Below, piece after piece: positions 9,085-64,000 of a stretch of DNA of 64,000 bases (position 1 is its first letter; each line of letters opens with the position of its first letter). The notes beneath the pieces were generated by a model. That model had not been told where the DNA came from. It did no database searches and saw only the letters and a list, made by a program, of their open reading frames with translations. The DNA is from Chitinophagaceae bacterium. Lineage in GTDB: Bacteria; Bacteroidota; Bacteroidia; Chitinophagales; Chitinophagaceae. The translations under genes and the position numbers were made by a program. The stretch is from the NCBI GenBank assembly GCA_027486835.1, contig JAIXOJ010000031.1:23937-87936 (forward strand), read 5' to 3'.

Positions 9085-9350
9085 CAATTGCAATTCTGTA
9101 AGTAAGTATCAATAAAATTGACTTGCAATAATGTTTTAGTTGTTTTCAGGCAATGTAAATCGTGCAACTGCTACACTTTTTTCGGCACAGAAGAGTAGTC
9201 CTTATGTCTTTGTAGTCAAGTAGATTAATGAGTTTATATTGACTCAAATACAATTGCAAATACACTGTATTCGCAATTGTATAGGGGGATTAAGCAGCTT
9301 CAAACCACCATTTGCAACATTGGGTTTAACAATTGCACTTTTCAATTGCT
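9085..9350. promoter_or_regulatory. Cluster of 8 CAATTGC/TTGCAA motifs upstream of giant gene 2, including a near-palindrome tacaattgcaaata...tattcgcaattgta
   Basis: Motifs sit at about 9085, 9091, 9124, 9251, 9274, 9313, 9330 and 9344 within 270 bp. That is far above chance for a 6–7-mer. Confidence 0.3.
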
Positions 9351-9426
9351 TACTTTGTGCGTTCGTTAATTGATTGCTAGTTTTTAAACTTCTGTTTGTA
9401 GTCCTTTTTATTGCTAATAGCCATTT

Positions 9427-12400
9427 ATGAAAGTGATGTTTACACGCTTGCTCGTATTGTTGTGTTGCCTCTATGCCACTAATGTTGTTGCCCAATATTA
9501 TCCTGGTGGAATGTCCAAGAGCAAAATAAATCTATGGTTCGATGCATCAGACACGGCCACGTTAACCAAGTCTTCTGGTCTAATTACGTCATGGAAGGAT
9601 AAAAGCAACAACTTATCTGCTGCACAAGCGACTACTTCTAGACAGCCAATATTAACCAGCCTCAACGGAAAAAATATTGTGGAGTTTAACGGCACTCAGG
9701 GGCTAGACATTGCTTACAATTCATTGCTAGTGCCAAACCAAGGATTTAACGTTGCACAAGTCTTGTATGTGTATGCAGATGCACCAACGAATGTGACCGA
9801 TTTTAGATCTGGTACTTTTTCCACCAATTCGGGCAACACGGGTTCGCCCTACATTGGCGTTCGGTATGTGGTAGTAGATGGTAAATACGAAATTGCTGCC
9901 AACAGAAACAATACAGGATACTATTACAGCCAATACGAAGACCTAAGAGGTAAATGGGCAATGGCCTCCACGACCTGTAATGCGGCAAACAGTAAGGTTA
10001 ATTTTTACTATAACGGTGCAGGTACCTTAAGTAGTACCGTTAGTGGTTATGTGAATAACAATACTGGGGGGGCTATTGGCAATCGGTTTGGTAATTATTC
10101 AGCCATTCATTGGGGGGTAAGCGAAACAGTTTTGGCGGGTTATGATGCCAAAAATTCTGGAAGAAGAATCATCGATTTATACCTAGCTACCAAATGGGGT
10201 ATGCGGGATACGTTGCAAAATAGTTATGGTAACCTATATGCACCTTTAGACGGAGCTTTTACCAATAATCTAGTAGGGATAGGTATAGAAAGTGCAGGCG
10301 ATACCACCAACGAAACTGGTTCCAACAATGGCTTGGGGTTGCAAAACATCAACGGGGTAACTGGATTTCTAAGAAAAGAAGGTAGTTATGTCCTTGCAGC
10401 CGACAATGGGTTATCAGGCAATGTAACAATGGCAACTGGCATTACTCGTTGGAACAGGAGTTGGTATGTGAACAAAACCGATGTATCGGGCTACGGGGGC
10501 TTGCTAAAAATAGTATTTGATTTCACTAGTTATGGTCAGGCCAATGCACTAGATACTGTCAACAACAACTACTACCTTTTATACAATCCAACCAATGGTT
10601 ATTACAATAGCGATAGCAATTATCTAGTCACAGTAAAATCTTATCAACAAGTGGCTGGTACCAAACAACTGGCTTTTTTACTTGATGGTATTGATGTAAA
10701 AAATGGTTTTTATACCCTTGTTTATGCGCCTAAAAATGGTAGTATGGCTGCATTGCCCAATTTGGCAAGTTTTGTAGCAGCCAGTGTTTCTGTGAGTCCT
10801 TCCCCCACTATTCCATCGGTATATTCTGGAAACACCTTCAACTATGTGCAAATAGATTCATCGGCCATCACTTATCCTGTAGCTTACTATAAAATTTATG
10901 CATCCGTTAATGGGGGTACATTAACAGCAATTGATAGCACCAATGGTACTACCAACTACTATGGTCATTATAATTTAACGAATGGCAACACGTATCTGTA
11001 CAAAATAAGTGCGGTATATGCCCCAGGCAAAGAGAGTGCATTATCTGATTCTGCCATTGGCATACCCAATAACAATACGCCACAATGGCTCATTCTGCCT
11101 CAATACAGTGAATCGGGCAAAATATTTATGGCGGCAGCCGCTCCATTGTCGGGTCTTCCGCTAAAATTCTCTTTTGAAAATGTTGCTGGTGGTGGACACT
11201 CTAGCGGTTTTCAACGGGCTTCCCAGTTTACAGATTCGCTGCTAACTGATGGAAATACCTATAGCTATCGATACCGATTTATGGACACCGTAATCGGTGC
11301 TGCAAGTTTGTCTGGATGGTCCACAACCCAATCGGTACTAATGACCGATTCTATACAAGGAGGTTATACCTATAATATGACCTACCTAGACCCCACCACA
11401 CCCTTTGCTCCTTATGGCATTGGGCCAGCTAATATTCTGCCTTCTAATCAAGATGTAACAGGGTTGCGTTTTATCAAGCATGTGCCGGCTGTAGGGCAGC
11501 ATCCCCGTATATTCTGTAGCCCATCCGATTCCACAGAAATTAGGTATCGATTAAAAAATACATCTGCAGGAGTGGCCGCTTCTCGGTTTATTCATGCCTA
11601 CACAACCTTGCTTCAATTGGGTAATTCCGGCTATAACAGAAATACTTTCTATAGTAGAGATACCTTGGGTAATATCTATTTCAGCAATGTAGGGGCTACA
11701 GACAGCAAAGCACTGTATGATTCATTGGCATTAGGAGACATTGGCGTTACTAATAATTATTCGAACTTATGGGGAGGTAATTATGCAAAGATGGCCTACA
11801 ACTTTTCCCATGAAGCCATGGAATGTTGGATTTATCGTAACCAAATAGATACTGTAACCAATACTTCCTACGCTACCCGTGCTAAGAAACTAGCTACCGC
11901 ACTCACGGTTTGGGCCAAGAAAGTGGTTGCAGATAATACCATCGTACCCAATTTAAACATGAGCAATTTTGGAGGATTACACAATGCCATTGCTTATGAT
12001 TTCTTATACGATCAAATGACCAAAAATCAACAAGATACCATTCGCATGGCCATCTTAAAAACTTTGCCTGACAGCAGCAAAGAGCATGGATGTTGGGCAC
12101 CTTCTTACACCACCACTACCAACTGGGCAACTTTTGGCGGTGAAATAACTTGCAATATTGCCGTTGAAGGCGAGCCTGGGTATTCTGCTAAAGATTCAGG
12201 ATTATTAAGAGGATGGGTAAAAACCGTTTGGAATTTCTTGACGTATGGTGTTTACCCAACTGGTAATATGTATGAAGGCATTGGTAAAAATCGATTGAAT
12301 GAATTTTTGCTAATAGCGATGGCCAAAAGAGGATATAGTGTATTGGGGCATCCCAATATCAGGGCATATGCTCAAAAGTATTTACCAGCAGTGGTGCAAC

Positions 12401-22126: not shown

Positions 22127-22684
22127 TTAATTGATAAAGTCTTCCACATTGGGCATTTTCTCGAGTTGGTTATTTAATTTCTCTTCCATTTGCGAAAAGG
22201 TTTCATTTCCATTTAAAACTTTGGAAGCATATTCGTACGGATATAGGGATAATACAACTCCATTTTTGTTATATTTTAAGGTCATACCTCTTAATGGATA
22301 TTCTGGTTTTTCATCTTTATATAGTTTAAAACCATACTTTTTAATCAGAAAGTCGCTAAATGAAATAGCTAAAAACAAAGTTGCCTGTGCCTCGCCAAGT
22401 TGATAAGCTTTACAATACAATACAAATCCAAAACCTGCTTGGTCTGTCTGGTCAAGATTATTTGGGTGATTGATTGGGTCTTCCATTTTTCTTGTAATCT
22501 TATTGGCAATAAAATAACCTTCAACCATTTTTAAGCAACCATCAAGCATTTCAGCATCAATATTATCCTCTCTATATCTTTTTTCAAAATATTCGGTTGT
22601 GTGGATTCCATCAATGTTTAAACCTTCCTTTTCCGTTTCTTCTTCTTTCTTAGTTGAAAAGAATAGTTTTCTAAAAAAACTCAT
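22127..22684 (-). CDS. Hypothetical protein (185 aa)
   Basis: Clean ORF convergent with the mini-protein gene. No recognisable motifs. Confidence 0.45.
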   Translation of the reverse strand: MSFFRKLFFSTKKEEETEKEGLNIDGIHTTEYFEKRYREDNIDAEMLDGCLKMVEGYFIANKITRKMEDPINHPNNLDQTDQAGFGFVLYCKAYQLGEAQATLFLAISFSDFLIKKYGFKLYKDEKPEYPLRGMTLKYNKNGVVLSLYPYEYASKVLNGNETFSQMEEKLNNQLEKMPNVEDFIN

Positions 22685-22839: not shown

Positions 22840-23721
22840 CTACCAATTCAATGCCTCTGGAATTTGATCAAACAATTTTTTCCAATTACGGTCTTCTGTC
22901 TTGTATAAGACCGTTTTTATAGCATACCAAACTGAAGGGTGTTGATAATTTTGGATATAAGCTCTATAGCTTTCTTTAATTTCATTTTTTATATGCTCTA
23001 GTGGTCGTGTAAAATCGAAACGTCCTTCGTTTGGTCGTAGTACTTCTTGAAGTTCTTCTATTGTCTTTGAGTTTGATATTCTCACAATTCTTTCCAAGCA
23101 ATCATAGTAATGATTTGCAGCACTTTTTCTTGCTGCTACTAACACATCCCTTTCATTCAATTCTAAAATACGAAGTGTATAATTGGCTTTATTGAAACTT
23201 TTTTTGTCTTCTTCGGTGGAAATAATTATTTCGAATCGATGGGTGTAGGGGTTCAACACCATAAAATCATTCGGATTTTCTGTCCTTGGATTGATGAATG
23301 CAATTTCATTATGCGGAGGTTTATTCCCACGTTCCGTTTTTGTTACGCTATTGTCTGTAGCGTTGATAACATAGCATTTGTCTAGTTTAAATCCTGAATT
23401 ACAGGTCTTGCAAGCCAAGAGATAATTATCCCATACAAAAGCATGTTCAGGAAAGAATGATTTTGGATAAATATGTTCTATATCCCCTGCCTCATTTTGC
23501 TCACAATAATTACAAACACCCGTAAAAACGCACAAGTCAAATAATTCGCTTTTGATCGTTTCAAATGCCGCTTTTGTTAGTCCTGAACTTTTTGCATTCC
23601 AAAGGGCTTTTGCTTTTGCAGCCTGCTGTTCAAAGGTGGTTTCAGCATTTATTTGAGCTTGCAAATCAGCTAAGGTTTTCTGCGTATTGGCATCTAAGGT
23701 TTTAGTTAGCAATCGAATCAT
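22840..23721 (-). CDS. HNH-nuclease-motif protein, PtuB-like partner of the upstream ATPase (Septu-like)
   Basis: Carries CNYCEQNEAGDIEHIYPKSFFPEHAFVWDNYLLACKTCNSGF, a CxxC...H...P...N...CxxCN HNH pattern. Its start overlaps the ATPase stop by 20 bp. Confidence 0.65.
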   Translation of the reverse strand: MIRLLTKTLDANTQKTLADLQAQINAETTFEQQAAKAKALWNAKSSGLTKAAFETIKSELFDLCVFTGVCNYCEQNEAGDIEHIYPKSFFPEHAFVWDNYLLACKTCNSGFKLDKCYVINATDNSVTKTERGNKPPHNEIAFINPRTENPNDFMVLNPYTHRFEIIISTEEDKKSFNKANYTLRILELNERDVLVAARKSAANHYYDCLERIVRISNSKTIEELQEVLRPNEGRFDFTRPLEHIKNEIKESYRAYIQNYQHPSVWYAIKTVLYKTEDRNWKKLFDQIPEALNW

Positions 23722-25036
23722 CGGTACTTAGTATTTGTAGTAACTCATGCCTTTCGTTTTCTTCCTCGTTAGTGATTTTGCCAAGTGCCGATAACACGTT
23801 TAGTCTTCCCAAACGTTCCAGTTTTTCAGCAGATTTAGCAGACCGCACTGCCTCTTTGCCAAATAACTCCGTACCGTAAGCATCTAGTATGTTGCCATAA
23901 ATGAGCTTTTCTTTTTCAGTTCCCGTAATTTCATTGATAACTACCGCCCCGTTTGCAGCTTCCAATCGCCAGATACTCCCCTTATCACAAGCACGGCATA
24001 TCAAAGGGCTATGTGTTGTTACGATAAATTGTAAATCGGGAAAATGTTGTGTAAACCAACCACCTATTTTGGTTTGCCAGCTTGGATGCAAGTGGGCATC
24101 TACCTCATCTATCAAAACAACCCCAGGCAGTTTTATTTGATTGGTAGCTGCTAAATCTTTAAACACCGGTTCATGACCAAAAGTAATAATCAGCTGACGA
24201 ATCAATTCAAAAGTCAAACTAAGAATAGAACGAAAACCATCACTTAATTGCGTAACAGGAAAATTATTACCAGATGCATCTTTAAAAATGGGCAGTTCAT
24301 CCACTTTTTCAAACCTTACCCCATTTGGCAGCAATCCACTTTTATTTACAAAATGTTTTATGTTATCTAAAATAATACCCGATTCAGATTCCTCTAGGCC
24401 ATATTCCTTTTCCTTTAGCCGTTTATAATCAAGGCTTTTTATCCAAGCTAGCACTTCGGTTAATGCAGCACCTTCATCAAAAACGCTTAAGTGCGCGCCA
24501 ACTTTAGGTGACGAAAGATACACTTTGTCTAATTCTGGATTTCCTCCAGTAAATCTTCTAAAGGAACCAAAGCCTGCCGAGAACCATCCTTTGCCAGTAC
24601 CCCAGTTGTAATTATTTTCTTTATCTGGGTGTTTTATAGATTTCAAATTTGCATCCCCAATTTCAAAATTATAATTATCACGTAGTATTACTTTTTTGTC
24701 AGTATCAATAAAAAGAATCGCATTGCAAATAAGATCTAACTCTTCTATATTTGTTTTGCTTTTACCTGTATTTTCATCGATTTCTTTATCAGTAGTAATA
24801 AAAACACATGTACTCCCAAACGCTTCCCCCTTTCTTAACCATTCATTCCAATCAGCACGGATAGCATGAGCTTCAATAGGACCAATCAAGGCCAATGAAA
24901 CTGCTTTTATGAAAGTAGATTTACCAGAACCATTGTCTCCAATCAATACATTCCATCCCGCATAATGGGGATGAAAGTCGATTGTAAGGGCTTCAATTAA
25001 TCCAATATTTAAAAGCTTTACTCTATCTATATACAT
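23702..25036 (-). CDS. ABC/SMC-like ATPase of the AAA_15/AAA_21 (OLD/RecF-like) family, PtuA-like
   Basis: Has Walker A GDNGSGKST, ABC signature LSDGFRSILSL, Walker B VVLIDEVDAHLHP and H-loop VTTHSP. 444 aa, immediately upstream of the HNH gene. Confidence 0.7.
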   Translation of the reverse strand: MYIDRVKLLNIGLIEALTIDFHPHYAGWNVLIGDNGSGKSTFIKAVSLALIGPIEAHAIRADWNEWLRKGEAFGSTCVFITTDKEIDENTGKSKTNIEELDLICNAILFIDTDKKVILRDNYNFEIGDANLKSIKHPDKENNYNWGTGKGWFSAGFGSFRRFTGGNPELDKVYLSSPKVGAHLSVFDEGAALTEVLAWIKSLDYKRLKEKEYGLEESESGIILDNIKHFVNKSGLLPNGVRFEKVDELPIFKDASGNNFPVTQLSDGFRSILSLTFELIRQLIITFGHEPVFKDLAATNQIKLPGVVLIDEVDAHLHPSWQTKIGGWFTQHFPDLQFIVTTHSPLICRACDKGSIWRLEAANGAVVINEITGTEKEKLIYGNILDAYGTELFGKEAVRSAKSAEKLERLGRLNVLSALGKITNEEENERHELLQILSTDDSIAN

Positions 25037-25305
25037 TAAGTACCAATTTAAAATTCGTGATATTTTTTCTCAACTTGATTACAAGTTCTTTAATTTGGTA
25101 AAGAAAAGCGATTTATTGCTTTGTGAGATTATTGGGGTAATAAAAGAAAAAAGCCCTGGGCGAAATCTTTGCCTTGTGCATCTCTCCCAAATATTCAAAT
25201 CCTATTTTTAAAAGGCAACACCAAACCTAATTCGAATAACACCTTTCTATTTCCAAATAAGCCCCAGCAGCAGGTTTGCGACAGCAATAGCCCTAAAACG
25301 CCGAT

Positions 25306-25520
25306 AAACATCAATCGAGGTTCAATAAACATCAATCAAGGTCTGATAGACATCAATCGAGGTCTGATAGACATCAATCAAGGTCTGATAGACATCAATC
25401 GAGGTTCGATAGACATCAATCAAGGTCTGATAGACATCAATCGAGGTCTGATAGACATCAATCGAAGTGCGATAGACATCAATCGAGGTGCGATAGACAT
25501 CAATCGAGGTCTGATAGACA
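25306..25520. repeat. Tandem array of ~10.5 copies of a 21-bp unit (agacatcaatcgaggtctgat, with cg/ca and ct/gc variants)
   Basis: Repeats read directly from the sequence, with no spacers between copies. The predicted ORF 25169..25528 is just the in-frame translation of the repeat. Confidence 0.9.
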
Positions 25521-25700
25521 GAAATTGAACTTTTTACACCTTTTTGGATAGTTTTTGCTCTAGAAAAGGATAAAAAAGTGATATTTTTAAGTTTTAACTT
25601 TTCAATTAGATATTTTAACGGTGACGACGATTGCGCAATTCAAATTCTTTTTTTACTTTCGCTTCTGAAATTCATTTAAGAACATTAAAAAGCAATTATT

Positions 25701-26378
25701 ATGGAATTTTATAGTATCCCAGCAAGTGTATCACAATTTGACGTTTACCAAGAATCGCTTTATGATTTAGTTACCAAAAATGCCTCTGATTGGGGTATCC
25801 CCGCAGCCGTTGTGGCCAAATTAACCGCATTGCGCAACAAATGGGCACCAGCCTTCAAATTGCAAGCGGACGAATACACCGCTAGCAAGGCCAATAAAAT
25901 TACTCGGGATACTATAAGAAAGGAATATGAGACCGAGATTAAAAACATTATTGAACAATATTTACTCAACAAAAGCACCATTGCCGAAGATAAAAAGGGA
26001 ATGATTGGGATAAAAACCAAAAAAACACCTACTTCCACCAAGGGCGAATTAAAAGGATTTCCAGTTATTGAAGTTCGTATCAATGGTTCGTTGGCACATA
26101 GCATTGTTTTTCGCGATTCCATTGCTACTAAAAGCAAGGCGAAACCAAAGGGTGTTGCTTTTTGCGAATTGCGTTATAAAGTGATAGATACTGGCACGGC
26201 TGGGCCTATTAGTGCAGATGATTTTACAGGATATGAGCTTATTTCTTCTAGTGGTGATAATGTTCGCTTTCCAGAGACGTACCGCGGCAAAACCGCCCAC
26301 TACTTTGCTCGCTGGCGCAGAATAGATGGCTCAACAGGCTCTTGGAGTGCTTTTACAGATGGTGGAGTAATTAGTTAA
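25701..26378 (+). CDS. Hypothetical protein (225 aa), founder of a small paralog family
   Basis: Clean ORF 180 bp downstream of the 21-bp array. A frameshifted paralog fragment with the same downstream terminator sequence lies at 46140..46560 (minus). Confidence 0.55.
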   Translation: MEFYSIPASVSQFDVYQESLYDLVTKNASDWGIPAAVVAKLTALRNKWAPAFKLQADEYTASKANKITRDTIRKEYETEIKNIIEQYLLNKSTIAEDKKGMIGIKTKKTPTSTKGELKGFPVIEVRINGSLAHSIVFRDSIATKSKAKPKGVAFCELRYKVIDTGTAGPISADDFTGYELISSSGDNVRFPETYRGKTAHYFARWRRIDGSTGSWSAFTDGGVIS

Positions 26379-26401
26379 TTCCTGAATAGGTTATGATTAT
26401 T

Positions 26402-26446
26402 AAGCTCGAATGGACTACTACGTAAGTCTGTTCGAGCTTTTTTTAT
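26402..26446 (+). terminator. Rho-independent terminator (aagctcgaa...ttcgagctt + T7)
   Basis: Hairpin plus T-run 24 bp after the stop. The same motif is present after the pseudogene copy. Confidence 0.6.
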
Positions 26447-39649: not shown

Positions 39650-40250
39650 TAAAAATGGGTATATATTTATTGCGCACGAATCTGAGCAACCCTAACATGC
39701 CAATACATTAAATGCGCATTAATTTATTTGGCTTGAACTCAGGCATATATATATTGAGCATTAATGCGTAGGGCTTAAACATGTGGCATACATATAACGA
39801 GCATTAATGCGAGTGTATTAAACATTCAAATTGTTAATGAAAACATCGTTAATACGCACGTGAACATGAGCCTTACTAACGCAAACACGTTCATCACATA
39901 CGTGAACATTAGCATTACAGATGTAAACACAGACATCACACACGTGAGCATGATGATTACTGACGTGAACATGACCATTTTGTACGTGAACATGCGCATT
40001 AATATAAACAACACTAATGCAAGAAAAGAAAAAACGGATGAAAGAGACGTGAACATAAGCTTTATAGACACAAACATGAACTTTAGAGAGGTGAACACGG
40101 GGGAAAGAGATGTGAAAACATAGGATAAAGACATGAACACGGAAGAAAGAAACGAGAACACATAGGATAGAGACGTAAACATGAATGTTAGAGACGTGAT
40201 CACGGAAATAATGAGCATGATTAAGCGTTGATGGAATGCGGAAATACCGT
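39650..40250. repeat. Degenerate direct-repeat region with ~21-bp periodicity (core A(G/C)ACGTGAACATG, about 17 copies) preceded by gcattaatgcg-type repeats
   Basis: Read directly from the sequence. Low-complexity His/Val-rich ORFs on both strands are artefacts of the repeat. Confidence 0.7.
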
Positions 40251-40658: not shown

Positions 40659-43600
40659 GTGTTTAGCATGAAACAGAGAAAGCCACTAGTTTGGTTAGTA
40701 GGTATGTCGTTAGTTGTGTTTTTTTCAACTATTCATTTAAGCTTTGGCAAAGCTGTATTTGCCAACCATAAAGAGGATAGAATTACTACCCCTCCATCGA
40801 ACAAACAAGCAACTCATGCAGTAAATGAACTTGAGCGTAAGCAAAGAATCCCTATTAGCCCCACCGCTACCCCAACCATTAGTTCCTTTTCGCCCGCCAT
40901 TGCCTGCCCTGGCAGTACGGTGAATATTGTGGGTACTGATTTTACTGGGGCTACTGCTGTACGATTTGGGGGTGTTGCTGCGGCTTCTTTTGTTGTTAAT
41001 TCTGCCACGAGCATTTCGGCTGTTGTGGCTGCGGGGGGTGTCAATGGCGTGGTTACTGTCACTACCCCAAGCGGCACTGCTACTAGTGCCACCAGTTTTT
41101 CAGTGGGTAGCGGCACGGTGGCTTATGCCTATATGACCAACTATGCCGACAATAATGTGAGCATCGTTAATACATCCACAGGTGTTGTTAGTTCCACCCT
41201 TGCCGTGGGTGCAACGCCATCTGGTGTAGCGGTTAACCCAAGTGCTACACGCGTCTATATTGCCAATTCAGGCGATAATACCATTAGTGTTATCAATACA
41301 AGCACCAATACTGTATCTGCCACTATTACTGTTGGTACCCAACCAGTAGGCATAGTGGTAAGCCCAGATGGCAGCAAGTTATACGTGACCAATTTTGGAG
41401 AAAACACCGTTAGCGTTATAAATACTAGCACAAACACCGTAACTACAACTCTAACGGTGGGCAGTGGTCCTACCGCCATTGTTATAGCTCCAGATGGCAC
41501 CAAAGTGTATGTGGCCAATAGTTTTGCCAATACCGTTAGCGTCATCAATACTTCCAACAACACCGTTAGCACACCGATGGTATTTACTGCTTTCACTTAC
41601 CCTGCGGGGCTTAGTATCAACAGTACAGGTACCGTTTTGTATGTGGCCAATCAATTTAAGAATACGGTTAGCTTCATCAGCACTGCAAGCAATACCATTA
41701 CAAAAACCGTTGCTGTAGGCAAAAACCCTATAGGATTAACCCTAAGTTCAGACAATGCCACGCTTTATGTGGCCAACAATGGTGGTAATTCTGTGAGCGT
41801 GGTGAATACAACAACAGCAACAGCTACTGCTACGGTTAACGTAGGTAGTGCACCCTTCGGATTGAGCGTTACACCCGACGGCTCTAAAGTGTATGTGGCA
41901 AATAATGGAGGCAACACGGTTAGCGTTATTAATACGAGCAACAATACGGCTGGAACATCTATTACCGTTGGTGGGTCACCTTTTGGTTTTGGTAATTTTA
42001 TGGCTAGTGTTGTTACCCCTTGTTTACCCACTATCAGTTCATTTACCCCCACCACAGCAGCTTTAGGCACAACAGTAACCATTTCGGGTACTAATTTATC
42101 AGGAGCCACAGGGGTGAAGTTTGGAGGTGTGGCTGCCACTTCTTTTTCGGTAATTAACAGCACTACCATTACTGCGGTAGTGGGTAGTGGTGCTACTGGG
42201 GATGTAGCTGTTACTACTTCTGGCGGTACTGCTACTAAAAGCGGTTTTACTTTTTGTACTAACGTTACCCCATCTGTTACCATTTCTGCAAGTGCTGCTA
42301 CCATTTGCTCAGGGAGTAGCGTCACTTTTACCGCAGTACCCACAAACGGAGGTAGTAGCCCTAGCTATCAGTGGAAAAAATTCAACACCAATGTGGGTAC
42401 CAATAGTGCCACTTTTACTACTTCCACCTTGGCCAATGGTGATTCTATATTGTGTGTAATGACCGCTAACAATGCCTGCCAAACCACCCCTACGGCAACA
42501 AGCAAACTTATTGGTGTAAGTGTGTATGCCACACCCGCTTCGCCATTTATATCGGGTGGCACTTGCGTGGGCAGTACTTTACAGGTGACCCCATCTAACA
42601 ATCTATCGCAGATTGATTGGCGACTTAACGGAAACACCATAAGTTCTGTGACCAATTTCGGAAGCAGTGGCAACACGTTCGCTGGGGGTAATGGTAGTGG
42701 TAGTGGCGTTAGCCAATTGAATTTGCCTATTGGGGTAATGCTCGATAATGCAGGCAATGTATATGTGAGTGATGGCAGTAACAACCGTGTTGTAAAATGG
42801 GCACCTGGTGCTTCAACTGGGGTAGTGGTAGCTGGGGGCAATGGTGCAGGCAATGGCTTAAAGCAATTACAATTTCCCGAAGGCATTTATGTGGACGGAA
42901 GCAATAGCGTATATGTAGCCGATAATAATAATCACCGAGTTGTGAAATGGACTTCTGGTGCTTCGGCAGGCGTATTGGTGGCTGGTGGAAATGGCCAAGG
43001 CAGTGCCGCCAACCAATTAAATTATCCCGATGGTATTTATGTGGATGCCAATGCTACAATATACATTGCCGATGCCTTTAACCACCGCATTCAAAAATGG
43101 ACGGCTGGGGCAACCACAGGTGTTACGGTTGCAGGAACTGGCATCAGTGGTAGCGGAGCCAGCCAATTAAATTCACCCTTAGGCGTGTTTGTGGATGGAG
43201 TAGGTACGGTTTACATAGCCGATTTCAACAATCATAGAGTACAAAAATGGACGGCTGGTGCATCATCTGGTGTTACGGTAGCGGGAGGCAATGGCCAAGG
43301 TAGTGCGGCTAACCAATTGAACAATCCAACTAGTGTATATGCCGACGAAGTGGGCAATGTGTATGTATCTGATTATGGTAACCACCGTGTTCAAAAATGG
43401 ACAGTGGGAGCTACCACTGGCGTTACCGTTGCTGGGGGCAATGGCAATGGCATTACCGCCCTTCAATTATCTAACCCCAACGGTATTTATTTAGATGGAT
43501 CTGGTAACTTATATGTAGCCGATGGGGGCAATAACCGTGTACAAGGGTATGCCGCAGGAGCTATTAAAAGCAACAGCTACACTACCACCGCGGCCGGTAC

Positions 43601-45986
43601 TTACACCGCCAAAGTATATAGCACGGGCGGCTGTGCTGCCACTAGCGGTAGTGTGGTGGTGAATGCAACTGTTAAGCCATCTATATCTATATCATCTAGT
43701 GGTGCAAGTACTTGTGCGGGTACCACCGTATTCTTTACAGCAGTTCCTACTAATGGTGGTACAAGCCCTATCTACCAATGGAAAATCAATGGCGTGAATA
43801 TCGCTGGTGCTATGGCAAATACTTATTCAAGTAATAGTTTGCCTAACAACAGTTTAGTAAGTTGTGCACTCACCAGTAATGCTGCATGTGCCAGCCCCAC
43901 CGATACTACCAGCAATTTTATATTCATCAGTTACAATAGTACGCCCAATTTATGGACAGGCAACACTAGTACAGACTGGTCTGTAGCCAGCAATTGGTGT
44001 AGCAATACCGTACCCACCAGTGGAGCAGACATTAATATTCCTGTAGTATCCAATGGGCGATACCCTGCTTTAGCTAGCAACACTACTATTGGAAGTATTA
44101 ATCTGGCTGCTGGTGCTAGCCTACAACTCAATGGCAAAACCCTCACCATCAATGGAGCAGTTGCGGGTACGGGTGTTCTTAAAGGTTCTACTACATCGGG
44201 CTTAGTGGTCAACAGCAGTAGCACTTCTACTTTTTATTTCAACAAAACAGCTACCGACACATTGCTTGGCACACTCACCATTAGCGGCAGCGGTGGTGCT
44301 AAACTGGGTAATGGCTTGGGTATAACCAGTTTACTTTCCCTCAATGCGGGCAACCTTGACCTCAATGGTAATAACCTTACTTTAGAATCCACCTCCATTT
44401 CAGCCACTGCGGTGGTAGGGTCTGTAACAAATGGTGCAACTATTGCGGGTAAGGTAACGGTGGAACGTTTTATTCCCAAAGGCTTTAAAGCTTATCGGCA
44501 GTTGAGTGCGGGCGGGGTGTACAATGCTGGTTCATTCTTTAACAATTGGCAAGAAGGCGGCAACAAGCCTAGTGGCTATGGTACACATATTATTGGCAAC
44601 AAAAGCACTACGGCTGGCTTTAACACCACTACAGGACTAGACAACACCGTTAATGGCAAAAGGGGCTTGTTCATTTATACCAATGGTGGTTGGGATTCCA
44701 TCGGCAATACCAAAACCACCAATATCGATCCCTGTATGGGTTACCACATTGGTATGTTTGGCGACAGAACGGTGAACTTATACCAATCTAATTTTGATGC
44801 ATCAAGCGCTTTGGTTACGGCAACAACGATCCGTACAACGGGTCAATTATTAACTGGTTCTGTTACCTATACCAGCACTAGCACCACTGGTTCATTTGGT
44901 ACCAGTAGTGCTAAACTAAATACCGCCAATAATGCGGGCAGCTTGGTGGGCAATCCTTATGCTTGCGCCATCGATTGGCACAGTCTAACCAAAACGGGCT
45001 TGACCAATAGTTATTACTATTTCGACCCCACTTTCCTCATTAGCAATAGCTATCAAGTGTTTGTGTCTTATAACGCCACATCGGGTACCAACAGCAATCC
45101 GGGCAATTCAAAAATTAACCGTTACATACAACCTGGTCAGGCATTTTGGGTGGAGAATACGGCTAGCAGCGGCACCAGGCAGTTGGTGATTAGCGAAAGC
45201 AACAAAGTGACCAATCAAGCTTACACGGCAGTGTTTGCCTCCGAAAAGCGGGTGAACCGTTTGGCTATTACCCTTTGGAAAAACATTCCTAGTAAAGGCA
45301 ATACCAATATCGATGGTGCTGTGGCCGTGTTTGATGCACCATTTACTACTGAATTAGGTGATGAAGACACCAAAAAAATGCCCAACAGTCACGAAGACCT
45401 AGCCATCTTAGCGCAGCAAACTCCATTGGCCATCAATGGGCAACCCGCACCCAAAGCTGGAGATCGAATGCTGTTGCAATTGGACAAATTAGTGCCTGGT
45501 GTTTCGTATGAACTGCGTTTGGACGGTAGTGAATGGCAGTCTGAGGGCTTAACTGCTTATTTGGTAGATCAATACTTACAGAAAGAAACGCCTTTGGGCA
45601 GTGGTGTTTTGCACTACACTTTCACCAGCGCCTCCCCCTCCAATAATGAACAGCGGTTTAGCATAGTATTTAGCCAAAAACCCGCTTCGGCCAGCTATGC
45701 TACCACCCAAATTCTGCCCGCTGTTTACGCAGTTTACCCTAACCCAGTAGTAGGCAAAAAAGCAACCCTTAGTCTTACCAATGTACCAGCAGGAAAATAC
45801 ACCTTGGCTTGGTATAACGCTATGGGTCAGTGTATTACTAAACAACCAGTTTATCACGCCGCTGGTAGTGGCAACATAACTTACCCACTTTCTGCTATTA
45901 ATAGCAAAGGATTTTTTAACCTTCAATTGACTAACGACAAGGGCGAAGTGGTGTACACACAATCTGTATTAGTGGTTAGGGATTAG
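40659..45986 (+). CDS. Giant (1775 aa) T9SS-secreted surface protein (paralog 3). Order: IPT/TIG-like domains, YVTN beta-propeller repeats, NHL repeats, Cys-containing Ig-like modules, shared pre-CTD module, type-A CTD
   Basis: Signal peptide, YVANSGDNTISVINTSTNTV-type YVTN repeats, NHRVVKWT-type NHL repeats, VERFIPKGFKAYRQL...NNWQEGG module, and C-terminal VYPNPVVGKKATLSL...VLVVRD. Confidence 0.85.
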   Translation: MFSMKQRKPLVWLVGMSLVVFFSTIHLSFGKAVFANHKEDRITTPPSNKQATHAVNELERKQRIPISPTATPTISSFSPAIACPGSTVNIVGTDFTGATAVRFGGVAAASFVVNSATSISAVVAAGGVNGVVTVTTPSGTATSATSFSVGSGTVAYAYMTNYADNNVSIVNTSTGVVSSTLAVGATPSGVAVNPSATRVYIANSGDNTISVINTSTNTVSATITVGTQPVGIVVSPDGSKLYVTNFGENTVSVINTSTNTVTTTLTVGSGPTAIVIAPDGTKVYVANSFANTVSVINTSNNTVSTPMVFTAFTYPAGLSINSTGTVLYVANQFKNTVSFISTASNTITKTVAVGKNPIGLTLSSDNATLYVANNGGNSVSVVNTTTATATATVNVGSAPFGLSVTPDGSKVYVANNGGNTVSVINTSNNTAGTSITVGGSPFGFGNFMASVVTPCLPTISSFTPTTAALGTTVTISGTNLSGATGVKFGGVAATSFSVINSTTITAVVGSGATGDVAVTTSGGTATKSGFTFCTNVTPSVTISASAATICSGSSVTFTAVPTNGGSSPSYQWKKFNTNVGTNSATFTTSTLANGDSILCVMTANNACQTTPTATSKLIGVSVYATPASPFISGGTCVGSTLQVTPSNNLSQIDWRLNGNTISSVTNFGSSGNTFAGGNGSGSGVSQLNLPIGVMLDNAGNVYVSDGSNNRVVKWAPGASTGVVVAGGNGAGNGLKQLQFPEGIYVDGSNSVYVADNNNHRVVKWTSGASAGVLVAGGNGQGSAANQLNYPDGIYVDANATIYIADAFNHRIQKWTAGATTGVTVAGTGISGSGASQLNSPLGVFVDGVGTVYIADFNNHRVQKWTAGASSGVTVAGGNGQGSAANQLNNPTSVYADEVGNVYVSDYGNHRVQKWTVGATTGVTVAGGNGNGITALQLSNPNGIYLDGSGNLYVADGGNNRVQGYAAGAIKSNSYTTTAAGTYTAKVYSTGGCAATSGSVVVNATVKPSISISSSGASTCAGTTVFFTAVPTNGGTSPIYQWKINGVNIAGAMANTYSSNSLPNNSLVSCALTSNAACASPTDTTSNFIFISYNSTPNLWTGNTSTDWSVASNWCSNTVPTSGADINIPVVSNGRYPALASNTTIGSINLAAGASLQLNGKTLTINGAVAGTGVLKGSTTSGLVVNSSSTSTFYFNKTATDTLLGTLTISGSGGAKLGNGLGITSLLSLNAGNLDLNGNNLTLESTSISATAVVGSVTNGATIAGKVTVERFIPKGFKAYRQLSAGGVYNAGSFFNNWQEGGNKPSGYGTHIIGNKSTTAGFNTTTGLDNTVNGKRGLFIYTNGGWDSIGNTKTTNIDPCMGYHIGMFGDRTVNLYQSNFDASSALVTATTIRTTGQLLTGSVTYTSTSTTGSFGTSSAKLNTANNAGSLVGNPYACAIDWHSLTKTGLTNSYYYFDPTFLISNSYQVFVSYNATSGTNSNPGNSKINRYIQPGQAFWVENTASSGTRQLVISESNKVTNQAYTAVFASEKRVNRLAITLWKNIPSKGNTNIDGAVAVFDAPFTTELGDEDTKKMPNSHEDLAILAQQTPLAINGQPAPKAGDRMLLQLDKLVPGVSYELRLDGSEWQSEGLTAYLVDQYLQKETPLGSGVLHYTFTSASPSNNEQRFSIVFSQKPASASYATTQILPAVYAVYPNPVVGKKATLSLTNVPAGKYTLAWYNAMGQCITKQPVYHAAGSGNITYPLSAINSKGFFNLQLTNDKGEVVYTQSVLVVRD

Positions 45987-46139: not shown

Positions 46140-46560
46140 CCCTGATTATCCTGTACTCAAACAAAAAAAGCCAGACCAGACAACTTTAGTAGCCCATTCG
46201 AGCTTAAATAATAATAACCTATTCAGAGATTACAATTATTCCGCCATCTGTAAAAGTACTCTAAGGATCAGTGGAGTCATATTTTCTGAGGCAGCAAGCA
46301 AAATAGTGTGCGATTTTTAGGCGGTGCGTCTCAGGAAAGCGAATACTATCACCACTAGAAAAAATTAACTCATATCCTGTAAATTCTTCTGCACTAATTG
46401 GTCCAGCTGTGCCAGTATCTATTACATTATAACACAATTTACAAAAGCAACACCCTTTGGTTTCGCCTTACTTTTAGCAGCTATGGAATTGCGAAAAACA
46501 ATGCTGTGTGTCAATGAACCATTGATACGATCTTCAATTAATGGATGTCCTTTTTATTCG
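46140..46560 (-). pseudogene. Frameshifted, 5'-truncated paralog of the 225-aa gene at 25701..26378, including its downstream terminator sequence
   Basis: Minus-strand translation gives ...IEDRINGSLTHSIVFRNSIAAKSKAKPKGVAFVNCVIM* then, after a frameshift, DTGTAGPISAEEFTGYELIFSSGDSIRFPET... This matches ...IEVRINGSLAHSIVFRDSIATKSKAKPKGVAF...DTGTAGPISADDFTGYELISSSGDNVRFPET of the intact gene. Downstream it carries taagctcgaatgg(g/a)ctacta. Confidence 0.6.
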
Positions 46561-46579
46561 CTTCAAACCAGCCGCTATT

Positions 46580-46750
46580 TGACGGCAACCAAACGAAGCC
46601 TCCGCGAGCCTCTCGTCAACTGACGGCAGCCAAACGGAGCCTCCGCGAGCCTCTCGTCAACTGACGGCAACCAAACGGAGCCTCCGCGAGCCTCTCGTCA
46701 ACTGACGGCAATCAAACGGAGTCTCCGCGACCCTCTCGTCAACTGACGGC
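46580..46750. repeat. Tandem array of 4.2 copies of a 41-bp unit (tgacggcaaccaaacggagcctccgcgagcctctcgtcaac)
   Basis: Read directly from the sequence. It lies immediately 5' (on the coding strand) of the pseudogene. Confidence 0.9.
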
Positions 46751-46988: not shown

Positions 46989-47091
46989 TGGGGGTGCGTA
47001 AAAGTTTTTCGCTATGAAGCTTCGTTTTAACTTATACAGGGTTTCAAACCCTATATAAGTTTGCGAAAGGGGCGAAAAACTTTTACGCACC
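46989..47091. mobile_element. MITE-like element: 21-bp terminal inverted repeats gggtgcgtaaaagtttttcgc / gcgaaaaacttttacgcaccc around an ~60-bp structured core (gggtttcaaaccc hairpin)
   Basis: Perfect TIRs. A second full copy at 63390..63490 carries the same core in inverted orientation, with TIR positions co-varying (gcgt/acgc vs gcac/gtgc). Confidence 0.55.
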
Positions 47092-63389: not shown

Positions 63390-63490
63390 GGGTGCACAAA
63401 AGTTTTTCGCCGCCATCGCAAACTTTTAAAGGTTTTCAAACCCTATAAAAGTTAAAACGAAGCTTCAAAGCGAAAAACTTTTGTGCACCC
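63390..63490. mobile_element. MITE-like element, second full copy (gggtgcacaaaagtttttcgc ... gcgaaaaacttttgtgcaccc), inverted core relative to the 46989 copy
   Basis: Perfect 21-bp TIRs. The interior ggttttcaaaccct...aagttaaaacgaagcttc is the reverse complement of the 46989-copy interior. Confidence 0.55.
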
Positions 63491-63730
63491 CTTTCTTTGC
63501 CCAGAGTGCTTGTATTGTTTATTGTATCCACTAAAAAATGTGTTGCTTAATTTTAAATAGTTAAGACAATCTGTTTGCTCGAGAATTATTTCGTGTCAAC
63601 AACTGAAGTTTAGCCTAAGAAATATGTAATTATTCTGTAGATGGCGGTAATATAAAACTCATTTTTTGCAAAATCAATTTACAATTAAATTAATTGTTTA
63701 GGCTTCTTTGGTTATTTCTCTAAGATAATT

Positions 63731-64000
63731 ATATCAGCGAAGGCGAGGAATATATCAGCGAAGGCGAGGAATATGTCAGCGAAGGCGAAGAATATGTCAG
63801 CGAAGGCGAAGAATATGTCAGCGAAGGCGAAGAATATATCAGCGAAGGTGAGGAATATATCAGCGAAGGCGGGGAATATATCAGCGAAGGTGAAGGATAT
63901 ATCAGCGAAGGTGAGGAATGTATCAGCGAAGGTGAGGAATATATCAGCGAAGGTGAGGAATATATCAGCGAAGGTGAAGAATATATCAGTGAAGGTAAGG
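63731..64000. repeat. Tandem array of at least 13 copies of a 21-bp unit (atatcagcgaaggcgaggaat, with variants) running to the window edge
   Basis: Read directly from the sequence. It lies 240 bp downstream of the MITE-like copy. Confidence 0.9.

Follow-up and report, generated by a model that had tools for sequence, protein, structure and literature searches.

Results

A tandem array of 21-bp units precedes a gene of an uncharacterised family

The window analysed here is a stretch of 64,000 nucleotides (nt) from a Chitinophagaceae bacterium (assembly GCA_027486835.1, contig JAIXOJ010000031.1, positions 23,937 to 87,936 of the forward strand), and it carries a long array of 21-base-pair (bp) repeats followed by a gene for a 225-amino acid (aa) protein. 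An initial annotation, made from the letters of the window, had drawn attention to this layout, and Tandem Repeats Finder (TRF) bears it out, with a 21-bp period, 10.4 copies and a distance of ~180 bp to the open reading frame (ORF) that lies 3' of the array. The parts of the locus are as follows.

25303..25520, plus strand: array 1, head-to-tail repeats, period 21, 10.4 copies, 89% matches, unit GATAGACATCAATCGAGGTCT
25521..25700, plus strand: spacer from array 1 to the start codon, ~180 bp, with a -7 box candidate, TACTTTCG, at 25654-25661
25701..26378, plus strand: family gene, 225 aa, uncharacterised family
26402..26446, plus strand: intrinsic terminator, a 15-bp stem and T run (stem region 26402-26439), conserved in a pseudogene copy of the gene

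Each unit of array 1 has one purine motif, GAGG/AGGT, on the sense strand of the gene. We looked for an ATG-started ORF in the array and found none, and there is no terminator between array 1 and the gene in the window. The identical protein occurs on one other contig only, a 1,037-bp short-read contig that is broken inside the array.

The array and the gene family occur together across phyla

The initial annotation had suggested that such arrays and this gene family belong together, and the sequences of relatives strongly support a pairing that is general and extends beyond this genome. We scanned 80 metagenomic loci of another clade with TRF and by autocorrelation (lags 8-69, 600 nt upstream); most surveyed loci belong to this one clade, and the taxonomic breadth comes from a handful of named records. 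The strongest upstream autocorrelation lag was 21, 42 or 63 in 76 of 79 loci, and when redundant loci were removed the association held in 57 of 59, with a median best autocorrelation of 0.72. The same lags were strongest in only 9 of 64 downstream regions and 9 of 88 far flanks, where the median autocorrelation was ~0.45, and periods of 10-11 or 31-32 bp were never observed in this survey. The association covers Bacteroidota-type, Verrucomicrobiota, Spirochaetota and Planctomycetota/cyanobacterial-type relatives, at least five phyla. In the homologous locus that is closest (68% identity), a separate 21-bp array built of an unrelated unit stands 215 bp 5' of the gene; the homologue in Roseibacillus (28% identity) follows a 21 bp x10.7 array at a distance of 147 bp; the contig of a Treponema metagenome-assembled genome (MAG) starts inside a 21-bp array; and Planctomycete-type loci have arrays of 21 x9.8, 42 x4.6 and 21 x10.1. 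Across loci the distance from array to start codon ranges from 76 to 310 bp. Unit sequences are unrelated between clades and GC content ranges from 30% to 62%, while the period stays constant, which fits the earlier remark that the unit lengths correspond to two or four helical turns. Copy number is variable: a comparison of loci whose proteins are 94-99% identical, which the initial annotation had called for, shows one and the same unit in 6.5, 7.4, 11.5 and 13.5 copies.

This pairing of array and gene is not described in the databases or papers that we searched, and our literature search returned nothing relevant on 21-bp repeats, on the PQLLE family (see below) or on repeat-array defence systems. 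Many contigs begin within or just past an array (L003, L004, L006 and L019 among our loci), which indicates that short-read assemblies break at these loci. In GC-rich homologues the translated array can be seen in mis-called N-termini as 7-aa repeats, NLNLALA in one and GTVAIPG-type in another. Related gene-caller artefacts are false N-terminal extensions built of 7-aa repeats (P0064, P0079) and, as ORFs of their own, 250-aa "hypothetical proteins" overlapping the array (L088 7203-7967).

Two groups of loci show further peculiarities. In Roseibacillus ishigakijimensis (NZ_JAENIO010000002.1, 9329-10660), codon 87 of the homologue is an in-frame TAA (pseudogene, sequencing error or readthrough), an ORF of the XRE type with a helix-turn-helix terminates 8 nt short of the array, and the 21-nt unit can be read as a mini-ORF, ATG GCT CCG GGA GCT CAA TAA, with GGGAG 8 nt 5' of the next ATG. 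The XRE gene was considered as a partner and rejected, as it does not recur elsewhere. In three Planctomycete-type loci the array closes with a palindrome, GGAATG-N(3-6)-CATTCC, that consists of the last unit and an inverted partial unit (L094 3826-3850, L095 3904-3925, L097 3889-3915).

The protein family

A structure model of the 225-aa protein has an N-terminal three-helix bundle (residues ~10-93), a disordered basic linker and a C-terminal FN3-type beta sandwich (121-222). The FN3 assignment follows from a sandwich of seven strands and a Trp/Arg ladder near the C-terminal strands. Family members share the motifs SKAKPKGV and GKTAHYFARWRR..GSTG.W, and their C-terminal half is basic (median isoelectric point 8.8). 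Where a word-indexed search gave 7 relatives only, exhaustive profile searching brought up 3,586 clusters (50% identity) at E<=1e-3 and 1,627 at E<=1e-10. Among the best 150 of the 3,586 clusters nearly all proteins are ~220 aa long, and no informative domain fusion was seen in longer members. By source name the relatives come from Pirellulaceae, Planctomycetaceae, Phycisphaerae and Gloeobacteraceae MAGs, to which a genome scan added Roseibacillus ishigakijimensis and the Treponema MAG. Pfam and PHROGs contain no family matching the protein, and NCBIfam and PADLOC gave weak matches only; the NCBIfam entry NF052641, "PQLLE family protein", is touched weakly by 6 of 140 relatives, and we found no paper that mentions it.

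The module ends at the terminator

All-against-all clustering of flanking ORFs revealed no conserved neighbour, and in a Pfam survey of 133 neighbouring proteins 135 families were seen, none of them recurrent. No ParA/ParM/TubZ-type NTPase or replication gene was found near the family loci in this survey. The contexts are chromosomal and include SusC/D loci and ordinary metabolism, with defence and mobile genes sprinkled nearby (HepT/MNT in L001; methylases, Eco57I, AAA_21, nSTAND3, transposases and an integrase; a ResIII helicase and an N6 methylase). Viral contigs rarely carry the family: 5 loci were found in 2.9 million contigs of IMG/VR, versus 358 confirmed matches in the metagenome scan, and we rejected a phage origin because of these few matches. 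Taken together, the lack of a conserved neighbour and the rarity in viral contigs delimit a module of array, spacer, one gene and terminator.

The only recurring neighbour is a small protein with a Por_Secre_tail (type IX secretion sorting) domain, encoded immediately upstream at ~7 loci in two subgroups (L001 4419-5162; upstream ORFs of L024, L025, L028, L030, L048 and L056). In the window itself the surroundings are chromosomal, with genes for a GDSL lipase, a GT4 glycosyltransferase and DnaB downstream of the family gene, and giant surface-type proteins are also encoded there. Upstream of array 1 and divergent from it lies a complete Septu anti-phage pair on the minus strand, PtuA at 23702-25036 (E 4.8e-135) and PtuB at 22840-23721 (E 4.4e-75), within a low-GC stretch (0.35) that also holds an unannotated 185-aa ORF (22127-22684).

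A pseudogene copy and three further arrays in the window

TRF finds four long arrays in the window, one of them degenerate, and a tblastn search with 270 family proteins as queries finds two copies of the gene only, the intact one and a remnant on the minus strand. The further features are:

39742-40203: array 2, degenerate, period 21/42, units like GACGTGAACATNNNCATTACA
46161..46565, minus strand: pseudogene paralogue, codons ~115-225 and terminator, ~85% identical to 26044-26446 in a DNA alignment (best tblastn segment 46240-46458)
46580..46750, minus strand: array 3, period 41, 4.2 copies, 95% matches, adjoining the pseudogene
46990..47087, minus strand: hairpin element, copy 1, ~100 nt, nested, ~240 nt 5' of the 41-bp array, minimum free energy -48 kcal/mol, z -11
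63390..63490, plus strand: hairpin element, copy 2, ~240 nt 5' of array 4, minimum free energy -44 kcal/mol, z -9
63730..64000, plus strand: array 4, period 21, at least 12.9 copies, 92% matches, cut by the window end, unit TATATCAGCGAAGGTGAGGAA

The initial annotation had described a 4-copy, 41-bp array beside a frameshifted, 5'-truncated paralogue with its terminator, and TRF, tblastn and the DNA alignment agree. The remnant has a 1-nt deletion, a 2-nt deletion and an in-frame stop. As had also been claimed, the array sits in place of the N-terminal half of the gene: homology sets in at codon ~115, ~15-20 nt past the 41-bp array, which places array 3 where the missing half would be. A single deletion of roughly 520 bp would explain the truncated paralogue. 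The layout had further been likened to repeat-mediated recombination acting on the gene family; we see no sign that the arrays mediate recombination between paralogues, since the array sequences are unrelated. Read on the sense strand of the pseudogene, each unit of array 3 carries GAGAGGCTC and GCGGAGGCTCC. The third 21-bp array of the initial annotation, array 4, does run off the window, and its purine motif, GAGG/AGGA, is on the plus strand, so that any cognate gene would lie 3' of it on that strand, beyond the window. The degenerate array, which is absent from the initial annotation, occupies a 1.3-kb intergenic gap 5' of a gene for a 1,775-aa NHL-repeat protein (40659-45986); tblastn finds neither a family gene nor a remnant near it, and it also lacks dyad symmetry.

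The two copies of the ~100-nt hairpin element have the same orientation relative to their own arrays, and both stems show compensatory changes (in the outer one, a GT/AC swap). These are the only copies in the window, with none 5' of array 1, and the element may belong to the upstream region of the module. That the pseudogene array and array 4 have this element in common is the sole, indirect hint of a further homologue past the window end.

The arrays are non-coding and have clade-specific cores

We considered whether the arrays could be coding repeats, as in a heptad-repeat protein, and rejected this because substitutions have no codon-position bias, either between loci or within arrays. Between two loci with 196 differences in 867 upstream positions, these fall on the three codon positions as 54, 79 and 63 (15, 12 and 41 in their family genes), and variation within arrays is distributed as 181, 185 and 187. 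An open sense frame is missing from five arrays, and not every locus has a long upstream ORF. Hairpins in a sense-strand RNA are likewise unsupported: the two strands show no difference in folding energy, and at symmetric positions G-T mismatches (279) are not in excess over A-C mismatches (362) after allowing for composition. We also searched for known RNAs and for tRNA integration sites, and neither Rfam families nor tRNAs were matched.

Many units read as palindromes about their centre, and against column-permuted arrays as a control dyad symmetry is enriched overall (mean z 1.5; 43 of 50 arrays positive, 19 of 50 with z>2; p 4.5e-8), the Roseibacillus array being among those in which it is not significant. 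Units of one clade have a core motif in common while the rest varies. In the subgroup of the window the core is RAGGTY; in the AT-rich clade, the largest, it is an AAAnTTT centre with GGAA/TTCC-type flanks that we recognised by eye. GC-rich arrays have no A-tracts. In the ten arrays outside the AT-rich clade, the sense strand has 1.06 GGAG/GAGG/AGGA motifs per unit and the antisense strand 0.12, a bias that is absent from the AT-rich clade.

Promoter candidates differ in position between clades

Promoter calls are consensus matches, and between clades they conflict. At the Treponema locus a candidate sigma-70 promoter matching 11 of 12 consensus positions lies between array and gene; the 21-bp units fall outside its -35/-10 interval, and the best unit-like match lies within the promoter, in the promoter's own spacer. 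In the subgroup of the window a Bacteroidota-type -7 box candidate at about -44 is aligned in three loci (TACTTTCG in the window, TATATTTG in the two closest loci). A unit-like operator at the promoter was considered as a general feature and rejected: the Treponema locus shows it clearly, the window does not have it. Loci of the AT-rich clade have a conserved, promoter-like TAnnTTTG box followed by a conserved leader upstream of the array, and this leader ends just 5' of the array in a strong hairpin with a 13-17-bp stem and compensatory changes. The leader (L039 2250-3000, L026, L081, L078, L080, L063 and L073) has no Rfam match; it could be a separate small RNA gene.

Discussion

A proposed DNA platform phased at two helical turns

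The period of the array is kept across unrelated units and a GC range of 30-62%, and we think that this is best explained by the geometry of duplex DNA as a physical constant: 21 bp, the sole invariant, corresponds to two turns of B-DNA, whereas neither RNA nor coding accounts for the number. We therefore favour a model, at a probability of roughly 40%, in which the array is a cis-acting DNA element, a platform that is phased at two helical turns, binds one protein unit per repeat and controls the gene next to it. Successive units would lie on the same face of the helix, so that one protein per unit would build a phased, co-operative nucleoprotein array just 5' of the promoter. Because no other gene is conserved at these loci and the unit sequence varies from locus to locus, the gene's own product would be the most economical binder, presumably through its basic FN3 half, with autoregulation or titration, and hence transcriptional control, as the output. 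Gain or loss of units would retune the dose while leaving the helical phase unchanged. What makes us prefer this phased platform is the period, together with the lack of a coding or sense-RNA signal, promoter candidates that in two clades stand 3' of the array, cores that are specific to each clade and the failure to find a partner gene. The overall enrichment of dyad symmetry and the variable copy number also speak for it.

Several observations weigh against it. We know of no bacterial DNA-binding protein in which FN3 is the DNA-binding fold, and in the structure model the N-terminal helices exceed the length of those in a helix-turn-helix. The pairing has exceptions on both sides: a few family members are without an array (L096 and three of the five viral-contig loci, L090-L092), and the degenerate array at 39742-40203 is without a family gene. 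Arrays can share only half of their 21-mers when the proteins are 97-98% identical. Dyad symmetry is not significant in the window's own arrays, and the sense-strand polarity of the GGAG/GAGG/AGGA motifs, seen in all ten arrays outside the AT-rich clade including three of the window, is what an RNA would show as well. In that clade the TAnnTTTG box and a gap-free conserved leader of ~230 nt stand upstream of the array, and strict boxes are scarce from array to gene. Two further features go unexplained by a DNA element: upstream of the gene, the longest stop-free frame is longer on the sense than on the antisense strand in 48 of 55 loci, and a comparison of L073 2127-3023 with L079 419-1285 shows 196 differences in 867 positions with zero indels and zero in-frame stops.

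Alternative roles for the array

Some of the same observations are what one might expect if the array were transcribed in a long 5' leader and acted as RNA, with the 21-nt unit binding, or folding with, the FN3 protein or a cellular factor and thereby controlling the translation, stability or assembly of the downstream product, in the manner of toxI-ToxN or of CsrB-type GGA sponge RNAs. The largest clade, with its box and ~230-nt leader, a compensated hairpin before the array and few boxes between array and gene, would suit such a leader well, as would the Shine-Dalgarno-like or GGA motifs on the sense strand in 10 of 10 arrays outside that clade and the invariable position of the array 5' of the gene. 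Avoidance of stops in one sense frame would be expected if ribosomes had to traverse the leader, but the open sense frame is missing in five arrays; and conservation of length is strict, 867 nt with zero indels at 23% divergence. An RNA does not explain why 21 nt should be constant across phyla. Corrected for composition, the sense strand shows no surplus of G-U over A-C at symmetric positions, its folding energy does not differ from that of the other strand, there is no Rfam match, and many units have a palindrome about the centre, for which an RNA loop has no need. Moreover, the near-consensus promoter of the Treponema locus and the conserved -7 box of the window's subgroup both lie 3' of the array. 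On balance we regard a role as leader RNA as unlikely, if still a serious competitor.

Less probable again, in our judgement, is structural DNA with no specific binder, in which the array would be a phase-preserving spacer 5' of the promoter, intrinsically bent or prone to form cruciforms, whose slippage in 21-bp steps tunes expression as a variable-number tandem repeat (VNTR). This would account for a period that is kept when the sequence is not, for copy-number polymorphism between near-identical loci and for the similar array at 39742-40203 that has no gene. An AAAnTTT-type tract once per unit in the AT-rich clade would fit as well, but GC-rich arrays lack A-tracts; enriched dyad symmetry would favour cruciform extrusion. 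The core motifs of clades and the strand polarity are left unexplained. Nor would it be clear why one gene family retains its array across at least five phyla, or why the array never has a period of 10-11 or 31-32 bp, with which phase would be kept equally well.

That the module derives from a mobile replicon, as its remnant or its core, with repeats that are iterons or a partition centromere and a gene for an initiator or a centromere-binding protein, is very improbable, since the tandem ~21-bp direct repeats beside a single gene (as in iterons/rep or parC/parR), the unit-like site within one promoter and the variable, often defence- or mobile-rich neighbourhoods (Septu, HepT/MNT, methylases, transposases, integrase) are set against a protein without a winged-helix Rep, ribbon-helix-helix or ParB fold, no ParA, ParM or TubZ NTPase or replication gene nearby, chromosomal housekeeping contexts and only 5 matches in 2.9 million viral contigs.

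Comparison with known repeat systems

The arrangement resembles several described systems and is none of them: it is not an iteron replicon, a type III toxin-antitoxin system, a partition site or a CRISPR. With iteron replicons (R6K pi, pPS10 RepA and P1 RepA, whose iterons are 19-22 bp) it shares head-to-tail repeats about two turns apart beside one gene, a repeat sequence that is specific to the element and, at one locus, a repeat-like site in the gene's promoter. The initial annotation had likened the arrays to iterons, an analogy that our data do not support as membership of that class, as the protein is not a Rep initiator but a helical bundle with FN3 that matches no Rep family in Pfam or NCBIfam, and the loci are ordinary chromosomal ones without origin features or replication and partition partners, with longer arrays (to 13.5 units) that lie 76-310 bp from the start codon. 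Partition centromeres (R1 parC/ParR; F sopC, 12 x 43 bp, with SopB) likewise have a long phased array 5' of the gene for the presumed binder, which would also autoregulate, but our module differs from the Type II and Ib systems in having no partner NTPase and no ribbon-helix-helix or ParB fold, and in not being plasmid-borne. In type III toxin-antitoxin systems (ToxIN, CptIN, TenpIN, AbiQ/antiQ) a non-coding tandem array also stands 5' of one small gene, array and gene sharing a strand and forming an independent unit that is often near defence genes; however, their units are 34-45 nt rather than 21 nt, and our module has as many as 13 copies, no ToxN/AbiQ endoribonuclease fold, no consistent PADLOC match and no signal of sense-RNA structure. 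Those systems have a promoter 5' of the repeats and a terminator ahead of the toxin gene; here the window shows no terminator at that place, and the promoter candidates stand 3' of the array in the Treponema locus and 5' of it in the largest clade. Upstream VNTRs such as the 7-bp repeats of Haemophilus hmw resemble the arrays in varying in copy number between close relatives and in lying between upstream DNA and the gene, but contingency VNTRs have units of 1-9 nt whose number alters reading frame or promoter spacing, whereas the 21-bp unit is non-coding and its period is conserved across phyla with one gene family, a combination for which we know of no contingency locus. A CRISPR array was rejected because the units are head-to-tail and have no spacers. 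We would describe the kind as phased repeat arrays paired with a cognate gene, and there is a real chance that it is a categorically new thing.

In a bolder version, which we hold to be doubtful, the FN3 protein would represent a new class of sequence-specific nucleic-acid binder that polymerises at one unit per 21 nt on its private array, and the module would be autonomous, rapidly co-diversifying and spread across phyla, with a function (an epigenetic switch, a dosage counter, a defence or exclusion device) for which no parallel has been described.

Why does this module merit attention? Thousands of clusters in at least five phyla make up a family that annotation has missed, and with it goes an unusually clear non-coding mark, namely a period of 21 bp that outlasts complete turnover of the sequence. 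There is a practical side too, in that the arrays break short-read assemblies and lead gene callers to invent repeat ORFs and false N-terminal extensions. If the protein does bind the array, it would represent a new nucleic-acid-binding fold in bacteria and, from locus to locus, natural orthogonal pairs of protein and site. If it does not, the strict period would need another explanation, and two helical turns as the quantity under selection would itself be notable.

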